A stretch of 64,000 nt of DNA from a candidate division KSB3 bacterium (lineage in GTDB: Bacteria > Moduliflexota > Moduliflexia > Moduliflexales > Moduliflexaceae): positions 128,021 to 192,020 of the forward strand of contig PDSJ01000014.1 of the NCBI GenBank assembly GCA_002748425.1, given 5' to 3'. The notes under the pieces are model-generated. The model was not told where the DNA came from. It ran no database searches and saw only the letters and a program-made list of their open reading frames with translations. The translations under genes and the position numbers were made by a program. How positions within the stretch are numbered: the first letter of the stretch is position 1; each line of letters starts with the position of its first letter. Positions 2,175 to 33,567 of this stretch are shown in pieces.

Positions 2175-3689
2175 TCACACCTCAGTTTCCAAAATATCAT
2201 CAGAACTGACAGCAGCTTGCATAATATTTTCCTCTGTGAGCTCTTCTCCGCTCAATTCTGCAGTTATACAGCCATGATTCATCACTAAGACACGATCTGA
2301 AACTCCAATTAATTCAATTAAGTCGCTGGTGTATACGATGACCGCGACACCACAGCTTGCCAGTTCGCGCATCAATTGATAAATCTGCTGTTTTACAGCA
2401 ACATCCACTCCTTTTGTTGGCTCAAGCATCACCATGACCTGAGGCTCTGCAAGCAGCCATTTCCCGAGTACTAATTTTTGCATATTACCACCACTCAGTG
2501 ATTCGGCTGTTTGGGATGTCGAAGTAAGTTTTAAGGAGAGCTGCTGGGTTATTCGTTCAATGGCGTTTTTCTCGTCACGTTTGCGAATGAAACCATATTG
2601 TTGACGGCGTTTAAGCGTTGACGCTGTCAGATTGTCACGTGCAGAAAGAGCAGGAAATATCCCTTCCTCCCCCCGGTTATCAGGAACTAATGCAATTCCA
2701 GCTCGAATAGCTTGCACTGGATTTCTTAATTCAGTTTCTCGACCGTGTACCAAGATCGTCAGATCCTCACATCCTCCTAACCCAAAAATGGACTGCAGCA
2801 TCTCTAACTGTCCCTGCCCCTGAAGACCTCCAATCCCCAACACCTCTCCATGAGCAACTGAGAAGTGTACGTGTTTTCCGGAAAACTGCAAACGGGCATG
2901 GTACTCAAAAATAAGATGTGTTCTGTCAGAACTGTTGGATTTCTCAGGAAATATTTTTGAAACATCTCTGCCGACCATTAAGCTAATCAAGCGATTTTTA
3001 TCAAAAGATGAGACCTGCTCGGTCAGTACTTTTTGCCCATCTTTCATTACAGTGATTCGATCTGCAAGATGGAGAACTTCTTCTAACCGGTGAGAAATAA
3101 AGATAATACCGTTTCCCTTGCTTTTGAGATCGCAGATGATCGTAAAAAGTCTATCGACCTCATCTTTTGATAAGGCAGACGTTGGTTCATCAAACACGAT
3201 TACTTTAGGTTTCTGGGTTAAGACTTTGGCAATCTCGACCATCTGCCGTAAAGGCATTGGGAGTGACTTCACAAGAACATGTGCTTCTACATCGATTCCT
3301 ACTTCCTGTAACGCAGTGTTAGCTCGCCGTATCATTGCTTTGCGGTCAATAATTCCACAGCGCTTTCTGGGCCAAATTCCCATAGAAATATTTTCAGCGA
3401 CTGAGATCTCCGGCAACAAGGATAACTCTTGATAGACTACGCCAATTCCAGATTTTCTGGCATCTGAATGGTTTTGGAAATGTTGCTCAAGCCCATTCAA
3501 AAAAATTTTTCCATGATCAGGCCGATGAATACCTGCCAAAATTTTCATCAAGGTACTTTTTCCGGCCCCGTTCTCCCCAACGAGGCCGTGAATTTCTCCA
3601 TGTTGACAGATGAAATCAACGTGATCAAGCGCAAGTGTTCCCGGGAACGACTTAACAATGCTTTGTAGAGAAAGTAAAGGGGGGGACAT
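2175..3689 (-). CDS. sugar ABC transporter ATP-binding protein, duplicated NBD (CUT2 type)
   Basis: 504 aa with two nucleotide-binding domains. Walker A GENGAGKST in the first domain, a second ABC signature region (LSGGNMQK). Typical RbsA/MglA architecture. Confidence 0.85.
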   Translation of the reverse strand: MSPPLLSLQSIVKSFPGTLALDHVDFICQHGEIHGLVGENGAGKSTLMKILAGIHRPDHGKIFLNGLEQHFQNHSDARKSGIGVVYQELSLLPEISVAENISMGIWPRKRCGIIDRKAMIRRANTALQEVGIDVEAHVLVKSLPMPLRQMVEIAKVLTQKPKVIVFDEPTSALSKDEVDRLFTIICDLKSKGNGIIFISHRLEEVLHLADRITVMKDGQKVLTEQVSSFDKNRLISLMVGRDVSKIFPEKSNSSDRTHLIFEYHARLQFSGKHVHFSVAHGEVLGIGGLQGQGQLEMLQSIFGLGGCEDLTILVHGRETELRNPVQAIRAGIALVPDNRGEEGIFPALSARDNLTASTLKRRQQYGFIRKRDEKNAIERITQQLSLKLTSTSQTAESLSGGNMQKLVLGKWLLAEPQVMVMLEPTKGVDVAVKQQIYQLMRELASCGVAVIVYTSDLIELIGVSDRVLVMNHGCITAELSGEELTEENIMQAAVSSDDILETEV

Positions 3690-14999: not shown

Positions 15000-15722
15000 A
15001 TGAAAAAGTATTTCGCACACTTAGCCGTATTCACCATTGCACTAAGCTCGTTCTCAGCAATTGCCTCAGCAGAATCACTCACAGTCAAGAATTTTGCTCA
15101 ACTCCAATGGAAGACCGGAACTTTTTGGTCTGAGGGGAAAGAGCATAAAGGAGTTGGGACGACTGCCATGCAGCTCGAACTGCGTAACACCGAAGGGGAG
15201 ATGATGAATGGAGAAGAGCTTTTCGTGGGCTTTTGTGTGGATCCGGTACAGCCCATGTATAAAAATTTGGCTGTGAACGTCACCATGACAAATGTTGATA
15301 ATGTGACTGGAGGCCTTGAGGCCGCGTGGCTCTTTGACAGTGTCTATAATGAAAGTTTGAGCAAGAAGAAAATTGCCGGCTTGCAGTATGCCATCTGGGA
15401 AATCACCAGCGGTGACAGCGTGTACGATCTCGCCAGCACGACGGGACATTTTTATGCGGAAATACGAGATGAGGCTATTCGTAACTATGCCAATGACTAC
15501 CTGGCACTGGTGTCGAAAGAAGACAATATCAGCCTGGACAGCTTGAGTGCCTCGTATATGATTTCTCAAAGTTCGAAATATCAGGATTTGATCGTCAGAG
15601 TGCCGAATGTTCCGACGACTGCCGTGCCGGATCCAGTTCCGACTCCGGAGCCCGCCAGCATGATGTTATTGGGGATGGGACTGCTGGGACTGTTCGGTCT
15701 GCGAAGAAAACAGCGCCGTTAA
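15000..15722 (+). CDS. PEP-CTERM sorting-domain protein (exosortase substrate)
   Basis: N-terminal signal peptide. C-terminal PEP motif (…PTPEPAS), hydrophobic helix (MMLLGMGLLGLFGL) and basic tail (RRKQRR). RBS AAGGAG. Confidence 0.8.
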   Translation: MKKYFAHLAVFTIALSSFSAIASAESLTVKNFAQLQWKTGTFWSEGKEHKGVGTTAMQLELRNTEGEMMNGEELFVGFCVDPVQPMYKNLAVNVTMTNVDNVTGGLEAAWLFDSVYNESLSKKKIAGLQYAIWEITSGDSVYDLASTTGHFYAEIRDEAIRNYANDYLALVSKEDNISLDSLSASYMISQSSKYQDLIVRVPNVPTTAVPDPVPTPEPASMMLLGMGLLGLFGLRRKQRR

Positions 15723-25849: not shown

Positions 25850-26426
25850 AATACGTTACTGAAACAGGTCCGCATGACGCCGGCAAGAGAATTTTTAACT
25901 TTTTGTGAAATTGTAGTTTTTTTCGCTTTCTTGTGCGTGTATGAAATAAGTCTTGACAATTGAATGGCGATGTTATAGAAGAAATACACAGGCATGACAG
26001 CCCATACTGACATGCGGGGTTGAAAAGGGGTAAACCGTCGGGAAGGGCGTCTTTATTATGCTGTAGCTGGCTTTTAGGCTTTGGGGGGAATTCACCGTAT
26101 CGACCTGGAAAATATTTCAGTGCGATTTTGTATCTTCTCACCTGGGGAGTTTTGGGAGTCAGGCACTGGATTCAAAGTCTGATACGTCGCTTGAGGAGGC
26201 GGATAAGGCTCTTGAAAAATTTGCGCGAAGACTTTATGCCCAAATGACGCTGACGGACAGTGGAAGGATTGAATCTGAATTTTCAGGCTTCCTGGATTTT
26301 CATACTCCAGTACCGCAAAAGACGTTGAACTCATGAAGTGTCTTTATTGAGCCGCAAGTGAGCGAAAAGGAGAAAGCGGGGTTGCCTCAGCTTGAAACTC
26401 TTTCCTCACCTTGTGATCTTGTTCTT

Positions 26427-28844
26427 ATGAAGAAATTATCCACGCATATTGTTCTCTATCTGATCGTCCTTATCCTCTCGTACTCATCAGAGGTCTCTGC
26501 CAGAGAGATTCTTAAAATTACTCGTGATCACTTTGAGTTTCGGAATGCACCCCAAGCGTCGGATGACACCTTTATCAGCACCTTGCGAGTCGATACCCCT
26601 GTCGAATGGACCGGGAAGATTTCCGGGAAGTGGTTTGAGGTAAAAGCCCCGAGCGGTTTAGTCGGATGGGTGCACAGCAGCGGCTTGTCAAATCCGAAGA
26701 CTCCTGTGCCCCGTCCTCAAAAAACCATAGCTCCGAGCAGTGTTGTACGTCGGCCTTCTTCGTCAGCGCAAGTGTCGAAGTTGAAAGCCTCGGTTAAGAC
26801 TCTTAAAAAAACCAACGCGCAGTATGAAGCAAAGCTCAAAGAACAAGATCGCAGACTTCAGGAGTCTTCCGAGAGGATTGGAGAACTGGAAGAAAAGCTC
26901 TCTGATGCTGATCAGCGTCTCAACGATCAGGAGCAGCTTTGCACCTTGCATGAGCGCAAAGCCGATGAAGCTGAACAGCGCGTGCTTGTTCTGGAAGAGA
27001 CGATTAAAGAGAAAGACGACGCCTTGATGAGCGCAAAGGTCGAGACAACCAGACTCCACAATGAATTGCAGAATATTCGCACTGAACACAGCGCTTTGCT
27101 GTCGCCTGAGCGACTGTTGCTGCTGCTTTCACTGTTTGTAAATGCCCTCGGCTTTATCTTCTTTCTTGCGATGAGAAAGAGGCCTGCGGCTGGAAAAGGC
27201 GCTGCTCCGATGCTCATACGTGAAGATGTTAAGCATAGCGATCAGGAAACTGAAGATACGGATCGTAGGGAAGAGGTTATTTCAGGCAAAGATGAAGGTC
27301 TTGAGCTGGATTCCCAGGGACATGCTCTTGAAAACGACGATCAGATGAAAGAACTGGATGTCGTGATGACGTCATCACACGCGGAGGGACGTATTTCTGA
27401 AGATGCCGGCAGCGATGAGGTGGAGATTGACCTGGGCGATGTGCTCCCTGCAGCGTCGGCTGGAGTCACGACGGTGCATACCGGTAGCTCCGATAATGAT
27501 AATTCATATGCTAAGTTAGACCCGCTGCCTGCTGTACCCGAGGAGAGAGAACAAGGTCTTGTGCATGAAGAATCGGTAGAAGAAATCATCAGCCAGCACA
27601 CAGACGGAGAGTCCATCCTGGATGATGAGCCTCTTATTGTTGGGGGAAGCCTTCTTGATGAAGACCGTCTGGAGTGTTCTGAAGAATCAGAGCATGTGGA
27701 AGAACTTCTCGAAGATTCTGACGAGACGCTTGAAGAGATCGAGAAGCTTGTCCAGGAGGATCCTGAACTCGTCGAAGGATTCGGTGATGATGCAGAGTTG
27801 CCGGAAGAAGGGCTTCAAGCTGTTGAAATCAGTGGAGAGAGTTTCGAACAGCTCCCAAAAAGTGAAACTCAGCTCATTGAAAGTGAGGAGGAAGACGAAG
27901 GCCTTTTTGAAGATCTGCCCGAAAATTTCCATCTGGAAGAGGATGGCCCCGGAGAGGAGCATGTTGAAGAGAAGTGTGAAGACGAGGATGAAGATGAGTT
28001 GGTTCTGGAAATTCCGGGCATTGTTGACGAGGAAGAGTACGAACATGGAATGGGGGGTTTTGAGACAGTGTCTGAAACGGACCTTGCTGAGTTTGAGGCT
28101 GAAAAACTCCCTGACGACTACAGTTGGGACGCTGATGACGTTACTGCAGATGTTGCGGAAGAAGTCCCCGACATTGACGGGTTTCAAGAAGAGACGCATG
28201 AGAGTGCTTCCATCAATGCCGACGATCCCCAGCTTGAGGAATTTACTGACAACTTGGGCGAAGCCGCATCACAGTCTGTTGAAGTGATGGTTGCCGGAGA
28301 AGTCGACGATGAAGAACCCTATGATTTCAGCGAAACATTGGAAATGGATTTGGAAGCATTTAAAGTTGAAGAAACCGTCCCTGTCGATGACCAGGATCAT
28401 GCTATTTCCAAAGCCTTACATGACGATCGTGAGGAAATCAACATCGAAAAAGACGACCTGGATATTTTTTCAGAGCTTGAGAAACTTCCTGAATCTGATG
28501 CTGAAGACGTTTCTGCCGCCCTCCTGGATCAGGACGCCCCTTCGTTCCTCGAACCGTCGCCGTTTTTGATTGAGCCGGAACATGAGCCGGAAGAGCCCTC
28601 TGTCCCAGTGGAGCGGGATGCACGGGAACAAGGCTATGCCATCGAATTGCAGGATGCCGGTCATAATAAGGAACATGTCATTCATGTCTTATCAAAAGTG
28701 AATGGTCTCCTGGCCGGTCCAGAAGAATTAGTCGAGAGTGTCCCCTGTATAATTGCAAAAGGGGCTGGAAAAAGCGATGCTGAAAATTTTCGCGTGATTA
28801 TGGAGAAATTAGGCGCAAAGATTCGTTTGTTTCCTGAAAGCTGA
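26427..28844 (+). CDS. membrane-anchored hyper-acidic protein: signal peptide, SH3b, coiled coil, TM, ~500-aa D/E-rich disordered region, C-terminal ribosomal bL12 (L7/L12) CTD-like domain
   Basis: Signal peptide MKKLSTHIVLYLIVLILSYSSEVSA. SH3b-like segment (…WFEVKAPSGLVGWVHSSGL). Heptad coiled coil. TM LLLLLSLFVNALGFIFFLAM followed by RKR (positive-inside). Long E/D-rich tail. The final ~70 aa (IELQDAGHNKEHVIHVLSKVNGLLAGPEELVESVPCIIAKGAGKSDAENFRVIMEKLGAKIRLF) align by eye to the E. coli bL12 CTD ([64 protein letters not shown]). Shared motifs: AGxNKxxVI, GxL, LVESxP, KxDAE, LxxxGA. Confidence 0.6.
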   Translation: MKKLSTHIVLYLIVLILSYSSEVSAREILKITRDHFEFRNAPQASDDTFISTLRVDTPVEWTGKISGKWFEVKAPSGLVGWVHSSGLSNPKTPVPRPQKTIAPSSVVRRPSSSAQVSKLKASVKTLKKTNAQYEAKLKEQDRRLQESSERIGELEEKLSDADQRLNDQEQLCTLHERKADEAEQRVLVLEETIKEKDDALMSAKVETTRLHNELQNIRTEHSALLSPERLLLLLSLFVNALGFIFFLAMRKRPAAGKGAAPMLIREDVKHSDQETEDTDRREEVISGKDEGLELDSQGHALENDDQMKELDVVMTSSHAEGRISEDAGSDEVEIDLGDVLPAASAGVTTVHTGSSDNDNSYAKLDPLPAVPEEREQGLVHEESVEEIISQHTDGESILDDEPLIVGGSLLDEDRLECSEESEHVEELLEDSDETLEEIEKLVQEDPELVEGFGDDAELPEEGLQAVEISGESFEQLPKSETQLIESEEEDEGLFEDLPENFHLEEDGPGEEHVEEKCEDEDEDELVLEIPGIVDEEEYEHGMGGFETVSETDLAEFEAEKLPDDYSWDADDVTADVAEEVPDIDGFQEETHESASINADDPQLEEFTDNLGEAASQSVEVMVAGEVDDEEPYDFSETLEMDLEAFKVEETVPVDDQDHAISKALHDDREEINIEKDDLDIFSELEKLPESDAEDVSAALLDQDAPSFLEPSPFLIEPEHEPEEPSVPVERDAREQGYAIELQDAGHNKEHVIHVLSKVNGLLAGPEELVESVPCIIAKGAGKSDAENFRVIMEKLGAKIRLFPES

Positions 28845-28879
28845 GCGAGAGAACGCGACGGTGAAATTAGTGTATGCTC

Positions 28880-30560
28880 TGCCGAAATACTCGCGCAACA
28901 ATTCTTTGGCATTTTATATCTTTAAACTTGAAGATCAAAACATTATGTGCCATTAAAACGAAAATACCACAAATATTTCTGTCTTTACAAAAAACTTATT
29001 TTTGCATGTATAAAAATTAAAAACTAACAGCCAATAGCTAACAACCCAAAAATAAACTATCATGGCAAGCAAACATATAAAATTTGACTGGGCAATAAAG
29101 CGACTGCTACGCAACAAAGCCAACTTCGAGATAATAGAGGGATTTTTATCGGAGTTGCTAATGTTCGATGTTAAAATTCAAGAAATATTAGAAAGCGAAG
29201 CTAATAAAGAAGATGAAAACGATAAATACAACAACGTAGATATTCTCGTAAAAGATACAGACAACAATTTTATGCTCATAGAAGTTCAAAACGAACGACA
29301 AGATGACTATTACCATCGAATGCTCTATGGACAGGCAAAACTTATATCTGAACGTCTTGATGCGGGCGATGAATACGGTAAACTCACCAAAATTTACTCA
29401 ATCAATATCGTTTACTTTCCACTAGGTGTGGGCAAAGATTATATTTATATTAGTGACGGCGGTTTTAAAGGTATGCATCTAACAAACAAAAAAGATTATA
29501 TAATGCAGAGAAAGTCAGAGATTTATTCACTCAATATTACATAATAAAAGTCAATACATTTAATGACGATGCTGAAAACACCTTAGATGAATGGATTTAC
29601 TTTTTAAAAAACAACGAAATAAAAGATGAATTTCGTGCCAAAGGTTTACAGAAAGCCAAAGAAATTTTACGTGTTGATAATTTATCTCCTGCAGAAAAAC
29701 GAGGTTATGAGATCTTCATTAAAAATCAACGTATTCACCAGTCAGAGATAACAACTGTTTATACTGAGGTACAGTACGAATTTAAAGAAAAATTAGAAGA
29801 AGAACGCAGACAAAAAGAAGAAGCCAGGCAAAAACTCGCAAAAAAAATGATAAAATACGGCGAATCACTTGAAGAAATAATGGAAGAAACTGGTTTAACA
29901 GAAGAAGAAATAAAAAAATTGCAGTAAATAAGTATAAGCAATACACTTTCTTATTAATGAAAAATATGAAGAAATTTTGTCTTTCTTTCGTTAAGAATTC
30001 CCTGAAGAATATGGAAAAGATGAACTTTTGAATAGATTAGGAATGAAAAAAATTAATTGAACTTCAAAAAAATTATGAGCAGACACAAAAGACTTTTAAA
30101 ACTAATATTAATGGAATTTTTTGGGGGTGGAAGAACAGGTTTTATTCCCCCGTGACTTCAAGCAGTTGAGAATTTTATCTCTATCCTCCCCCCTGTCTGC
30201 CAAAAGATACTGGGCAATGAAAGCACAAGGCTATTGCCTGAGTACAATCTGCTGTTGTACCTTATTGTAATACTAGTCCTGAGCGGCATACCATGCGAAT
30301 CCACGGCCAGATGTAATGCTGTGTTGAGCCCCCTTTTATGCGGATCATGTCCTGATTGCCACCTTTCTTCGATAAAGGTGTAACGGATGCCTGCGTTCGC
30401 CTGTGGGGAGAGAGGGATGAACTGGTATGTGCATGATTTACAACATATATGACTTTTTATAGACATATTTTGTATTAAGCGTTGTATAATTAGTGTATTG
30501 TGAAGAAAATTGTATGTCCTAAAATGAACACATTTTATTAGAGAATCTAATGTGTCTCAT
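28880..30560. mobile_element. AT-rich putative horizontally acquired island (degraded)
   Basis: Base composition drops sharply (long A/T runs) relative to both flanks. Contains a frameshifted Rpn/PD-(D/E)XK transposase-family gene and ~600 bp of non-coding DNA. No intact transposase or clear terminal repeats were identified. Confidence 0.4.
29062..29927 (+). pseudogene. Rpn-family / PD-(D/E)XK nuclease putative transposase (TIGR01784-like), frameshifted
   Basis: The N-terminal part (29062-29544) contains the PD-(D/E)XK core (…VDILVKDTDNNFMLIEVQNERQDDY…) and ends at tandem TAA TAA. The family's conserved C-terminal part (…FNDDAENTLDEWIYFLKNNEI…ETGLTEEEIKKLQ) continues in the -1 frame to 29927. 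There is no canonical slippery heptamer at the junction. Confidence 0.6.
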
Positions 30561-30861
30561 ATTTTTTCGTGAAATCTTCGCTGAAAAATACAGAAGTGAA
30601 GAAAGATGTTTACTCGACACTAAACATGTATGGTGCCTGTTTTACGGTGCAGAAAAGAGATCTCTCCCTGTAAAAAGTAAAAAATTTCGAAGGGCCGGGC
30701 CTTGGCATACTTTTCGCTATGACGCTGAAGGTGATTCATCTTTTGACCGTGAGAACTGTGAAATCTATCTTGACAGAATTTGGATAAAGAATGAGATCGG
30801 TAGTAGAGTAAAAAGGTGGAATGTTGCTTTCTATATCTTTTGCCTGTCTTATTGAAATAGC

Positions 30862-31851
30862 ATGTTTAGATCGAAAATTGTAGGCACAGGTTCTTATGTT
30901 CCTGATAAAGTCGTGACCAATACCGACCTTGAGGCTATGGTGGATACCAGTGATCAATGGATTCGGGAGCGGACCGGAATCAAGGAACGGAGAATTGCTC
31001 ATGAAGGTGTGCCGGTGTCCCATTTAGCCTTTGGCGCGGCAGAGCGGGCTCTGAAAAATGCGAGACTGGACCCCCTTGATATTGATTTGATCGTCCTGGG
31101 AACAGTGACGCCCGACATGCCGATGCCTTCGACGGCCTGTATCGTTCAGGGAAAGCTTGGAGCAAGCAATGCAGTGGCGTTTGACGTCTCCGCAGCGTGC
31201 AGCGGTTTTCTCTATGCACTTACGATCGGAGATCAGTTTATCCGCACTGGCATGTATGAACGTGTGATGGTGATCGGTGCTGATATGTTTTCACGCGTTG
31301 TAGACTGGTCCAATCGCGAAACCTGCATTTTGTTTGCCGACGGTGCAGGAGCGATGATTCTCGAAGCGACCGGTGTTGATGATGAATGCCGCGTGATTAA
31401 GTCGACTCACGTCTTTTCGGATGGACGGAAGGGAGATAAACTGTACATTCCCGGCGGAGGTTCTCTGAATCCGACCAGTCATGATACGCTCCATGAAGGC
31501 ATGCACTATGTCAGGATGAAGGGCAACGATTTGTTCAAAATCGCCGTGCGGACAATGGTGAACGCTGGAAAGCTTGCATTGAAGCATAATGGCTTAACGG
31601 TCAACGATCTTGATTTGGTTATTCCCCATCAGGCGAATATACGCATCATGGAAGCGATTGCGAAAAAATTACGCTTCCCGATGGAAAAGGTGATGGTGAC
31701 GATTGACTATTACGGGAATTCATCGGCAGCGACCGTACCGATTGCCTTTGATAAAGCGCTTCATACAGCGAGATTGAAAGATGGCGATACAGCGCTTGCC
31801 GTAGCCTTTGGAGCCGGTGTCACCTGGGGAGCGGCCCTGATTCAGTGGTAG
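30862..31851 (+). CDS. fabH: beta-ketoacyl-ACP synthase III
   Basis: MFRSKIVGTGSYVPDKVVTNTDLE…, active-site Cys region (AACSGF), C-terminal His/Asn motifs. 329 aa. Confidence 0.9.
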   Translation: MFRSKIVGTGSYVPDKVVTNTDLEAMVDTSDQWIRERTGIKERRIAHEGVPVSHLAFGAAERALKNARLDPLDIDLIVLGTVTPDMPMPSTACIVQGKLGASNAVAFDVSAACSGFLYALTIGDQFIRTGMYERVMVIGADMFSRVVDWSNRETCILFADGAGAMILEATGVDDECRVIKSTHVFSDGRKGDKLYIPGGGSLNPTSHDTLHEGMHYVRMKGNDLFKIAVRTMVNAGKLALKHNGLTVNDLDLVIPHQANIRIMEAIAKKLRFPMEKVMVTIDYYGNSSAATVPIAFDKALHTARLKDGDTALAVAFGAGVTWGAALIQW

Positions 31852-31927
31852 AAAGTCCTTGGTTTCAGAAGATAAAATCTCAAACATCATCGTAATGCTT
31901 ATAACATGACAAAAAGGAGAAGATATC

Positions 31928-32161
31928 ATGGCTGTTGATATGGATAAAGTCAAAAAAATTGTTGCAGAACAACTTGGTGTCGACGTGAGTGAAGTGACTG
32001 CAGAATCGTCTTTTATTGACGATCTTGGCGCAGATTCATTGGATACTGTAGAACTGGTTATGGCACTGGAAGAAGAATTTAGTATCGAGATTCCTGACGA
32101 AGACGCGGAAAAAATTTCAACCGTGAAAGACGCGATGGCTTACATTGAGGCGCACTGCTGA
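31928..32161 (+). CDS. acpP: acyl carrier protein
   Basis: 77 aa. [20 protein letters not shown] phosphopantetheine attachment motif. RBS AAGGAGAAG. Confidence 0.92.
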
Positions 32162-32322
32162 AAGTGCTTGCCACGCAAACGATTCAGCATCAGTGAACAG
32201 CATGATCAGAGCAAGTCGACTGGCCATGCCTTCAAGATACGAACTCCTGGCAGGAACGGGAACGAATATGTTCCTGAGCAGGGAATGATGGATTGTTTAA
32301 ACACACAATGAACACGAGAATT

Positions 32323-33567
32323 ATGAAAAAGCGAGTAGTTATTACAGGAATGGGTACCGTCAATGCTATCGGGAATAATGTAGAGACTTTTTGGAAAAAC
32401 GCTCAAGCCGGCATATCAGGAACAGATACGATCACACGTTTCGATCCCTCTGCTCTTTCTTCACGGGTTGCGGCGGAATTAAAGGATTTCGATGCGACGG
32501 ATTTTATTGATAAAAAAGAAGCTAAAAGAATGGATCCGTTTGTACATTATGCGATTGCTTCCGCAGATATGGCCATTGCAGACTCCGAACTGGATCTCGA
32601 TAAAATCAATCAACAGCGTATGGGGGTTGCGCTGGGGTCTGGAATGGGAGGCATGCAGACCTTTGAAACCCAGCATAAAGTGTTTCTGGAGAGAGGCCCC
32701 GGCCGTGTATCGCCTTTTTTTATTCCGATGGAAATCATCAATATGGCGTCCGGTCACCTGTCCATACGTTATGGCCTGAGAGGGGCAAACTTTGCTGTTG
32801 CAACAGCATGTGCAACCGGTTCTCATGCGATCGGTGAAGCTCTGCGCTGGATTCAGCGTGGTGAAATGGATCTGATGCTGGCCGGTGGTTCTGAGGCCAC
32901 AGTGACGGCGCTGGCGATTGCCGGTTTTGGCAATATGAAGGCGCTTTCAACGCATAACGATGAACCGGCCCGCGCAAGCCGCCCGTTTGATAAAACCCGT
33001 AACGGTTTTGTCATTGGCGAAGGCAGTGCTGTTTTTGTACTGGAATCTCTGGACCATGCCTTGGCGCGTAATGCTGAAATTTATGCCGAGCTGATCGGGT
33101 ACTCCACGACAGGTGACGGCTATCACATCACCAGTCCCGACCCGGAAGCAAAAGGTGTAACTACCTGTATGAAGAATGCTATTGCAGATGCAGAGATCGT
33201 TCCTGAAGATGTCTCCTATATCAATGCACACGGCACCTCAACGCCGTTCAATGATAAATTCGAAACCAAAGCGGTCAAACAAGTGTTCAACGGCCATTCA
33301 AAAAAGCTGGCGATCAGCTCAACAAAATCCATGATCGGACATTGTCTCGGCGCTGCCGGCGCAATTGAACTGATCGCGACTGTGATGGCCGTCAAAAATG
33401 ACATCGTGCCGCCGACCATCAATTATGAAAATCCCGATCCTGATTGTGATCTGGATTATGTCCCGAACAACGCGCGCAGCATGACTGTGGATGTGGCGAT
33501 GTCGAATTCCTTCGGCTTTGGCGGAACGAACGCCACTCTCGTGGTCAAGAAATACTCCGAAAATTAA
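32323..33567 (+). CDS. fabF: beta-ketoacyl-ACP synthase II
   Basis: MKKRVVITGMGTVNAIG…, active-site Cys (ATACATGSHAIG), HGTSTP and GHCLGAAG motifs. Start set at the ATG matching the canonical FabF N-terminus. Confidence 0.9.
   Translation: MKKRVVITGMGTVNAIGNNVETFWKNAQAGISGTDTITRFDPSALSSRVAAELKDFDATDFIDKKEAKRMDPFVHYAIASADMAIADSELDLDKINQQRMGVALGSGMGGMQTFETQHKVFLERGPGRVSPFFIPMEIINMASGHLSIRYGLRGANFAVATACATGSHAIGEALRWIQRGEMDLMLAGGSEATVTALAIAGFGNMKALSTHNDEPARASRPFDKTRNGFVIGEGSAVFVLESLDHALARNAEIYAELIGYSTTGDGYHITSPDPEAKGVTTCMKNAIADAEIVPEDVSYINAHGTSTPFNDKFETKAVKQVFNGHSKKLAISSTKSMIGHCLGAAGAIELIATVMAVKNDIVPPTINYENPDPDCDLDYVPNNARSMTVDVAMSNSFGFGGTNATLVVKKYSEN

Follow-up and report, generated by a model that had tools for sequence, protein, structure and literature searches.

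Between the gene for an acidic membrane protein and fabH, the 64-kb window (the whole stretch of candidate division KSB3 DNA analysed here) holds a gap at 28845-30861 whose GC content is 34.3%, compared with a window average of 47.7%. No other 2-kb segment of the 64 kb is poorer in GC; the remaining gaps between long ORFs range from 34.5 to 57% GC. The abrupt compositional drop that had been described between these two genes from the letters alone is therefore real. The features of the gap and of its flanks, some of them assigned from homology and others from composition or conservation, are as follows.

26358-28844, plus strand: left flank, acidic membrane protein gene (828 aa); ORF with Pfam matches, native and conserved in relatives
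28845-29061, no strand: non-coding and AT-rich, 31.8% GC; the foreign DNA begins somewhere within it
29062-29927, plus strand: Rpn-family (TIGR01784 / PF12784 PDDEXK_2) nuclease pseudogene, 32.4% GC; ORF frames and profile matches
29478-29483, plus strand: junction of a 22-nt deletion, source of the frameshift; DNA alignment with two intact genes, protein alignment with 15 homologues, Logan contig
29928-30109, no strand: spacer, extremely AT-rich (23.1% GC)
30110-30364, minus strand: IS5-family DDE transposase remnant, 46% GC, equivalent to residues 20-105 of a 165-aa OrfB; NCBIfam IS5 match, tblastn and nucleotide matches
30365-30549, no strand: AT-rich stretch, 34% GC; the foreign DNA ends within it or shortly after it
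30550-30855, plus strand: ORF101 (CSB45_06155), annotated as a hypothetical protein; matches only itself and overlaps the promoter-like element
30702-30720, plus strand: sigma-54-type -24/-12 promoter-like element with the sequence TTGGCATACTTTTCGCTAT, located 159 nt before the fabH ATG; consensus match and conservation
30862-31851, plus strand: right flank, fabH (ORF), followed by acpP (31928-32161) and fabF (32293-33567)

A frameshifted nuclease gene of the Rpn family

Frame 0 of the Rpn gene covers 29062-29544 (160 codons) and stops at a tandem TAA TAA (29542-29547), and the C-terminal half lies in the -1 frame, with its stop codon at 29925-29927, just as the original prediction had it. Profile scores were taken on a frame-corrected composite protein, about 288 aa if full-length. 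This composite matches PF12784 (E 1e-23; 84.7 bits, cut-off 27.4; profile positions 2-226 of 229) and TIGR01784 (E 1e-21; 78 bits, cut-off 52.1; positions 1-273 of 273), that is, both models end to end and above their cut-offs, which confirms the frameshifted TIGR01784-like PD-(D/E)XK gene that had been proposed. More than 7,000 homologues are found at E <= 1e-10, many of them titled 'predicted transposase/invertase (TIGR01784 family)' or 'Rpn family...'. The annotation of this MAG also contains a 127-aa 'PDDEXK_2' call, probably a pseudogene fragment.

The catalytic residues of RpnA are D11, D63, E82, Q84 and R94 (PMC5350276). Residues D9, D60, E74, Q76 and R86 of the window protein are invariant in 16 sequences, and hhalign against RpnA (70.6% probability, E 3.9e-5, 111 columns) pairs D9 with D11, E74 with E82 and Q76 with Q84, while D60 and R86 are offset by one or two columns from D63 and R94, where the register is uncertain. 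From the alignment of 16 and from hhalign, the predicted protein carries PD-(D/E)XK catalytic residues as in RpnA.

Comparison with homologues, suggested as a way of finding the exact frameshift, places it elsewhere than at the TAA TAA at which the gene had been thought to be split. DNA alignment with two intact genes identifies a 22-nt deletion whose junction lies about 60 nt upstream of the tandem stop, which is simply the first stop of the shifted frame. The frame shifts after codon 140, and the gene is no longer an uninterrupted ORF, frame 0 meeting its stop at 29542. The deletion costs about seven codons of a conserved ..NDELELSE.. stretch, two nearly invariant leucines among them, and all 15 aligned homologues (57-86% identity) are single ORFs carrying the codons absent here; the window copy is therefore a pseudogene and not a recoding site. 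Away from the junction, just one otherwise invariant column is altered. The deletion may have formed between two TCTAA repeats. Since the gene is almost undamaged apart from the deletion, its inactivation is recent. An independent Logan assembly of SRR6011892 contains the identical frameshifted sequence in a contig that spans window positions 26161-29619, and sequencing error, which had been put forward as a possible cause of the frameshift, is not borne out: a 22-nt deletion is no homopolymer error, and it recurs in the second assembly.

The closest intact Rpn genes (81-86% amino-acid and 74-79% nucleotide identity) lie in contigs of 31-38% GC and have the same composition as those contigs. 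On these grounds horizontal acquisition of the gene from a donor lineage rich in AT is probable, the direction of transfer being read from composition alone. Codon usage points the same way as the GC minimum at the gap: third-position GC is 0.34 and 0.23 in the two Rpn halves, outside the range of the host ORFs (0.506 +/- 0.056, minimum 0.372, for 39 long ORFs). Homology to donor-type genes is limited to 29048-29931; it begins 14 nt upstream of the Rpn ATG and finishes at the stop codon. Viral contigs yielded no close Rpn relative, and neither the Rpn gene nor any other island DNA has a further copy within the 64-kb window.

A decayed IS5-family transposase fragment

The segment at 30160-30440 is indeed richer in GC (47.8%), as had been noted, and it had been read tentatively as an 'element-associated structured RNA or remnant' with several stable hairpins. 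The second half of that reading holds and the first does not. The remnant is a 255-nt piece of an IS5-family transposase gene, with homology in each of the three frames of the minus strand (two or more frameshifts) and with both ends missing. Searched by tblastn, it matches residues 20-105 of P0121 at E 1e-15, with 50% amino-acid identity over the best 54 residues and about 42% over the whole stretch; P0121 is an OrfB that carries PF01609 at 2.4e-20. At the nucleotide level, identity reaches 87.6% over 129 nt, and annotated IS5 family transposases borne on plasmids match at 75-78%. A DDE transposase (PF01609) coding sequence is thus present as a fragment only; no OrfA match, no credible terminal repeats, no intact transposase and no target-site duplication of a complete IS5 element were found at 30110-30364.

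We attach next to no probability to the reading of the segment at 30160-30440 as an element-associated, structured non-coding RNA, and it was rejected. Local hairpins are present, for example GGCAAT...ATTGCC, but the segment folds no more stably than shuffled sequence (z-scores of +0.35 for the plus and -0.84 for the minus strand), and its translation across three minus-strand frames is IS5 transposase sequence. The Rfam scan that had been advised for both strands gave no match at E <= 1 in E-value mode over 28500-31200; at gathering thresholds, the whole window yielded nothing besides three tRNAs and one c-di-GMP riboswitch, each distant from the island.

A repeat search at the ends of the island returned nothing beyond short AT-rich matches attributable to chance: neither inverted repeats nor a target-site duplication was seen, and no tRNA was found nearby. 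For this reason the boundaries are placed to within about 200-300 nt per side. The spacer at 29928-30109 has no detectable homology, and a scan for promoters and terminators gave counts not above those of shuffled sequence.

Gene order in relatives and the fabH leader

In five of five KSB3/Moduliflexota relatives a divergent murB lies upstream of fabH, directly so in four. In the closest of them, L090 (fabH 83.6% identical at the amino-acid level), the order is acidic-protein gene, murB (minus strand), fabH, acpP, fabF and a TolC-like gene; in L004 it is acidic-protein gene, eamA, murB (minus strand) and fabH. L001 and L002 have murB on the minus strand directly upstream of fabH, and L003 has it there with one extra gene between. 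The 828-aa protein, which combines an SH3_3 domain, a coiled coil, a long acidic region and a C-terminal domain like that of ribosomal L7/L12, has homologues upstream of murB-fabH in L004 and L090. L090 was recovered by a metagenome scan with a two-sequence alignment, a scan with the acidic protein alone having given nothing. At this site the five relatives carry neither the Rpn gene nor the IS fragment, so that they do not show the shared AT-rich segment with an intact gene that had been named as refuting an insertion. Within the window, tblastn revealed no trace of murB, eamA or plsX and no pseudogene fragments of them inside the island.

The same comparison disposes of the suggestion that the island sits in the place of plsX/rpmF and reshaped a fatty-acid synthesis operon. 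None of the five island-free relatives has plsX/rpmF directly before fabH, none has plsX anywhere in the 4-10 kb covered upstream of fabH, and displacement of these genes was rejected; a plsX ORF immediately before fabH was seen in 42 of 70 loci, all from other phyla. Like the canonical rpmF-plsX-fabH-fabD-fabG-acpP-fabF cluster, the window has fabH, acpP and fabF contiguous and on the same strand. It differs in that the KSB3 lineage lacks fabD and fabG between fabH and acpP, and in that the ancestral upstream neighbour in this lineage is a divergent murB rather than plsX/rpmF.

The right-hand part of the gap has another character. An element resembling TGGCAC-N5-TTGCW keeps its position upstream of fabH: as TTGGCAYNNNTTTCGCTAT, it is found at -155 to -170 in all six KSB3-lineage loci. 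Across these six loci the pattern TGGCA[CT]-N5-TCGCT has an invariant core, and its flanks are not alignable; there are only two occurrences of the pattern in the window. The element's match to the consensus, together with its conservation, leads us to regard it as a putative sigma-54 promoter. Because it sits there, this part of the gap is probably native fabH leader, at least over the last 160 nt and probably over about 430 nt, and the island stops short of fabH. ORF101 has no Pfam or NCBIfam match, and searches of 5.8 billion and of 1.84 billion proteins recover no sequence but its own; as a strict orphan that overlaps a conserved promoter-like element, it was most likely called spuriously within the native leader. 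Since fabH keeps its own leader and the conserved element, the fatty-acid genes are probably unaffected by the island.

Discussion

Taken from the acidic-protein gene to the native fabH leader, about 1.5-1.8 kb of this locus is very probably a decayed, horizontally acquired patch that contains two dead genes of mobile type. The proposal of foreign AT-rich DNA in this region is upheld both by composition and by the absence of the island from the site in relatives. It is likely that nothing in the island is functional today.

What might argue against a dead Rpn gene? Its product could in principle be restored, minus seven residues, by a programmed -1 ribosomal frameshift or by transcriptional slippage on the A6 run at 29488-29493. 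The two frames do overlap over 29469-29541, the overlap includes C AAA AAA G, and neither half of the gene has an additional stop codon or frameshift. However, the shift is the product of a deletion that took out conserved residues, it is seen in none of the 15 homologues, the sole A-run reads AAC AAA AAA GAT, so that the frame 0 heptamer is C-AAA-AAA and not X XXY YYZ, and no structured element was detected downstream. An A6 run is also short for transcriptional slippage. Recoding is accordingly extremely unlikely, and of the original alternative, a pseudogene or a recoding site, only the pseudogene stands. Alternatively, the 160-aa truncated ORF (29062-29544) could still give a product that acts by itself as a PD-(D/E)XK nuclease or as a regulator, so that the gene would be remodelled rather than dead. 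The ORF keeps its ATG and the 14 nt upstream, conserved with the intact genes, and it keeps all the predicted catalytic residues (those matching D11, E82 and Q84 of RpnA and those no more than two positions away from D63 and R94). Yet it lacks PDDEXK_2 profile positions from about 140 to 229, its last 20 residues are out of frame, no likewise truncated homologue is conserved among the top matches, and its composition is that of unameliorated foreign DNA; we hold this to be improbable.

Two further readings concern the island as a whole. A MAG contig can be misjoined across an AT-rich or repeated stretch, in which case the island would not exist as written. The Logan assembly stops at 29619 and resumes at 30284, inside the IS5 fragment, which leaves 664 nt (29620-30283) outside its contigs and the join of the Rpn gene to the IS fragment resting on the MAG assembly alone; moreover, an IS fragment is the type of repeat that misleads assemblers. 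Against this, the acidic-protein gene and the frameshifted N-terminal part of the Rpn gene are contiguous in an independent contig identical to the window, as are the IS fragment and fabH, the deletion falls inside the independently assembled part, and the distance from the acidic-protein gene to fabH (1.9-2.6 kb in L090 and L004) is compatible with the join. A misassembly is thus very unlikely. Alternatively, the AT-rich stretch might be native intergenic DNA and the Rpn gene ancestral to the lineage. The fabH leaders of the relatives are likewise 8-13 GC points below their loci, and the rightmost part of the gap does appear native; but all five relatives have murB at this site, with neither the Rpn gene nor the IS fragment there, and the third-position GC of the Rpn gene is far beyond the host range. 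This last reading is hardly credible, and we retain that of a decayed patch of foreign DNA.

How might such a patch have come about? In the history that we propose, an Rpn-family PD-(D/E)XK nuclease gene would have been acquired from an AT-rich donor lineage and then inactivated by the internal 22-nt deletion, with the frame shifted after codon 140. On the opposite strand, an IS5-family transposase gene would have decayed to the frameshifted 255-nt fragment without ends. The patch sits where relatives carry a divergent murB, and from this we infer that its arrival, or a later adjacent deletion, removed murB, together with the EamA transporter gene (seen in one relative) if that was formerly present, and that the island thereby replaced them at this locus. 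A more daring version, which we consider improbable, is that the Rpn gene moved as a bare gene-sized unit, that its own RecA-independent recombination activity replaced murB (and eamA), and that the toxic nuclease was then silenced by the deletion. The extent of the homology, from 14 nt before the ATG to the stop, and the lack of inverted repeats and target duplication are compatible with such a unit but do not favour it specifically: at about 78% nucleotide identity the flanks would be unalignable anyway. The adjacent IS5 element is an equally good culprit for the replacement of murB. Were the bare unit true, the locus would capture, in nature, a gene replacement mediated by an Rpn nuclease.

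The window gene is most readily compared with its own family (TIGR01784; PF12784), whose two models the frame-corrected protein matches from end to end. Some genomes carry several copies of the family, 28 in the case of Ca. Thiomargarita nelsonii (PMC4853749), whereas the window copy is broken by the deletion, single within the 64 kb and compositionally foreign to its host. The experimentally studied members of the wider group are E. coli RpnA-E (YhgA-like, PF04754 Transposase_31), nucleases linked to the RpnL/RpnS toxin-antitoxin antiphage systems (PMC5350276, PMC10400941). The window protein shares with them a PD-(D/E)XK core with a D...D...E-x-Q pattern, the gene likewise appears horizontally acquired, the C-terminal tails of its homologues carry variable charged repeats that recall the variable 4-aa repeats of RpnS, the small C-terminal antitoxin made from an internal start, and the RpnA model matches the tail weakly (E 0.058). 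There are also differences. A Pfam search of the window protein gave no PF04754 match at E <= 0.1, which places it in another Pfam family within the shared superfamily; its relationship to RpnA is a remote one at the profile level. The first ATG of the C-terminal frame leaves just 26 codons for a putative internal start of the RpnS kind, and the window copy is a pseudogene. As for IS5-family elements, which consist of a DUF4096 OrfA and a DDE_Tnp_1 OrfB, the fragment on the minus strand is like residues 20-105 of OrfB, but only about a quarter of an element remains, spread over three frames, with no OrfA, terminal inverted repeats or target duplication.

What are the implications for the organism? 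The locus would be a tidy case of a housekeeping neighbour, murB, replaced by horizontally acquired junk in a candidate-phylum genome. As a scar of mobile DNA it is ordinary and matters little beyond annotation. Its most useful by-product is the invariant sigma-54-like element that precedes fabH-acpP-fabF across Moduliflexota, which would suggest how fatty-acid synthesis might be regulated in an uncultured phylum, in a way open to testing.

A foreign island upstream of fabH

In the gap between the acidic-protein gene and fabH (28845-30861), GC content falls to 34.3%, versus 47.7% for the window; no other 2-kb stretch of the 64 kb is lower. Other gaps between long ORFs span 34.5%-57% GC, and the only comparably AT-rich one measures 359 nt. 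The two halves of an Rpn-type gene in the island have GC3 values of 0.34 and 0.23, below the minimum (0.372) of 39 long window ORFs (0.506 +/- 0.056). Sliding GC and codon-position comparisons thus bear out the abrupt drop described in the original prediction, and the composition of the island is foreign. The locus comprises:

26358-28844, gene for an acidic membrane protein of 828 aa, left neighbour of the island
29062 (ATG) to 29542-29547 (TAA TAA), Rpn-type gene, frame 0
29469 (open) to 29925-29927 (stop), Rpn-type gene, -1 frame
30550-30855, ORF101, annotated hypothetical protein
30702-30720, sigma-54-type -24/-12 promoter-like element, also in relatives L090, L001, L002, L003 and L004
30862-31851, fabH, right neighbour of the island

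The 828-aa protein has SH3_3 at its N-terminus and, at its C-terminus, a match to the ribosomal L7/L12 C-terminal domain (PF00542, E 3.4e-7), together with a coiled coil and a very long acidic region; a hydrophobic stretch, read by eye from the sequence, is probably membrane-spanning. Homologues lie beside fab genes in relatives (L004, 5533-7401; L090, 7908-10370).

An inactivated Rpn-type gene

Joining the two frames at the A-run yields a 288-aa composite that spans Pfam PF12784 (PDDEXK_2; profile positions 2-226 of 229, E 1e-23) and NCBIfam TIGR01784 ('Rpn family recombination-promoting nuclease/putative transposase'; positions 1-273 of 273, 78 bits, cut-off 52.1) end to end. The gene is a member of this family, in two frames, as anticipated. 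When the composite was compared with 5.8 billion proteins, 7,353 of 8,000 scored candidates had E <= 1e-10, the best of the 8,000 showing 81% BLASTP identity (86% in a MAFFT alignment).

Where is the gene broken? The predicted frameshift is real, but it does not lie at TAA TAA. Aligned at the DNA level with two intact homologues, the window copy shows a clean 22-nt deletion at junction 29478-29483; the tandem stop is the first in the wrong frame, 60 nt downstream. The window protein lacks seven residues of GMHL-NDELELSEKQKK-LYNAEKV, a stretch present in 15/15 aligned homologues, and with them two nearly invariant leucines. The junction, GCA TCTAAC AAA, could have arisen by deletion between a pair of TCTAA repeats. 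A homopolymer sequencing error is ruled out, since 22 nt are missing and the Logan contigs, an independent assembly of run SRR6011892, are identical to the window over 26161-29619, frameshifted sequence included. Recoding, which had been considered conceivable and would join both halves into one product, is very unlikely: the frameshift is conserved in no aligned homologue, it stems from loss of conserved codons, and the sole A-run in the frame overlap reads AAC AAA AAA GAT in frame 0, not an X XXY YYZ heptamer. Because the deleted copy departs at only one invariant column of the 15 homologues outside the junction, and neither half has further stops, inactivation of the gene is recent.

The closest intact genes occur in two NCBI assemblies, on contig L081 of GCA_002754885.1 and contigs L082 and L089 of GCA_002754915.1. 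Their contigs have 33%, 31% and 38.5% GC, respectively, and the genes agree in composition with the contigs that carry them, whereas the window gene lies 16 GC points below its host. This agrees with the proposed foreign origin, and we infer transfer from an AT-rich donor. Homology to these three genes is restricted to 29048-29931, the gene plus 14 nt upstream; viral contigs yielded no close Rpn relative. GCA_002754885.1 also holds L090, the closest relative (46% GC, KSB3), and is evidently a community assembly, so donor type and KSB3 bacteria share the same kind of sample. Within each assembly the contigs are 8-13 GC points apart (L081/L090; L082/L089), and one encodes the KSB3 relative; both assemblies therefore behave as communities, not single genomes.

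Activity of E. coli RpnA depends on D11, D63, E82 and Q84 (PMC5350276). E. coli rpn genes, which move horizontally, have two products: the full-length nuclease, which is toxic, and a C-terminal antitoxin, encoded internally and variable in its repeats (PMC10400941). The Pfam family of RpnA-E is PF04754, to which the window protein gave no match at E <= 0.1 in a Pfam search. Its family profile aligns with RpnA at 70.6% probability (E 3.9e-5), pairing D9-D11, E74-E82 and Q76-Q84, with D60 and R86 one or two columns off D63 and R94 of RpnA. This remote alignment and the missing PF04754 match place the window protein in the TIGR01784/PF12784 branch, unlike RpnA-E. C-terminal tails of its homologues differ in the number of charged repeat units (alignment columns about 265-310), reminiscent of the E. 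coli RpnS antitoxin repeats (PMC10400941), and the window copy carries an 18-nt tandem pair (29797-29832). Only by inference would the window protein work like the E. coli proteins.

An IS5 remnant and a missing murB

Segment 30160-30440, described as GC-richer and as possibly a structured RNA or remnant, has 47.8% GC and is an IS5-family remnant, so that the second of the two suggestions was correct. Its minus strand encodes ...RWQSGHDPHKRGLNTALHLAVDSHGMPLR..., 50% identical to P0121 (DDE_Tnp_1, PF01609), a 165-aa OrfB transposase that adjoins a DUF4096 OrfA in the typical IS5-family arrangement. By tblastn, P0121 residues 20-105/165 match window 30364-30110 (E 1e-15), in pieces spread over all three minus-strand frames. 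The 129 nt at 30236-30364 are 87.6% identical to the P0121 element and 75-78% identical to plasmid genes annotated 'IS5 family transposase'. OrfA, terminal repeats and target duplication of the element are no longer present at the island. The structured RNA was rejected: Rfam gave nothing at E <= 1 for the segment, which encodes these transposase pieces, and its fold is no more stable than that of shuffled sequence. Elsewhere in the window, a c-di-GMP-I-GGC riboswitch aptamer (RF03167; 14798-14883 (+), 70.2 bits, gathering score 59) precedes an ORF at 15000-15722.

The window belongs to contig PDPS01000025.1 of GCA_002747525.1, and one of its proteins bears the annotation 'candidate division KSB3 bacterium'. 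Window fabH is 77-84% identical to its counterparts in Candidatus Moduliflexus and Candidatus Vecturithrix and on one metagenome contig. The island had been thought to occupy the plsX/rpmF position. plsX is indeed the upstream neighbour of fabH in 42/70 loci from other phyla, but KSB3-lineage relatives carry murB on the minus strand there, so that the expectation, sound in general, does not apply to this lineage. Gene order in the relatives is:

L090: acidic-protein gene, murB (minus strand), fabH, acpP, fabF, TolC-like gene
L004 (Vecturithrix): acidic-protein gene, eamA, murB (minus strand), fabH
L001, L002 (Moduliflexus): murB (minus strand) immediately 5' of fabH
L003 (Moduliflexus): murB (minus strand), additional 325-aa gene (2548-3522), fabH

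The additional gene in L003 means that the murB/fabH junction varies in more than one lineage. murB is absent at the island site, and murB, eamA and plsX are absent from the whole 64-kb window; the island probably replaced murB and possibly eamA too. fabH, acpP and fabF are contiguous in the window (30862-33567), without fabD/fabG between fabH and acpP, an order common to the relatives.

The native fabH leader

A six-locus alignment contains one invariant block, TTGGCA(T/C)NNNTTTCGCTAT, at -155 to -170 from the fabH ATG, the rest being unalignable. Window 30430-30861 has weak, collinear DNA matches to the L090 murB-fabH spacer, fabH leaders of relatives lie 8-13 GC points below their own loci, and ORF101, searched against 5.8 billion clustered proteins and 1.84 billion representative ones, has no match beyond itself. 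Together these features identify the right end as native, conserved fabH leader, which takes up a minimum of 160 nt, and probably some 430 nt, at the end of the gap; ORF101 is most likely spurious. The sigma-54 -24/-12 consensus is TGGCAC-N5-TTGCW, which the block fits; just two sites in the whole 64 kb show the strict pattern.

A model for the locus

We propose that an Rpn-type gene, since killed by the 22-nt deletion, was transferred from an AT-rich donor into the KSB3 lineage, and that the insertion, or an adjacent deletion, would have taken murB/eamA out of the locus. Logan contigs stop at 29619 and resume at 30284, inside the island, 29620-30283 being absent; the join there rests on the MAG assembly, and conserved synteny supports it. 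The breaks hint that coverage is low there, that strains differ, or that the IS5 fragment acts as a repeat. Useful expression of anything in the island seems improbable. The island is very probably an ordinary mobile-DNA scar, in which a dead IS adjoins an equally dead Rpn gene, a new member of a known family. The putative element upstream of fabH-acpP-fabF, found in 6/6 KSB3/Moduliflexota loci, suggests that fatty-acid synthesis in the phylum may be under sigma-54-dependent control.
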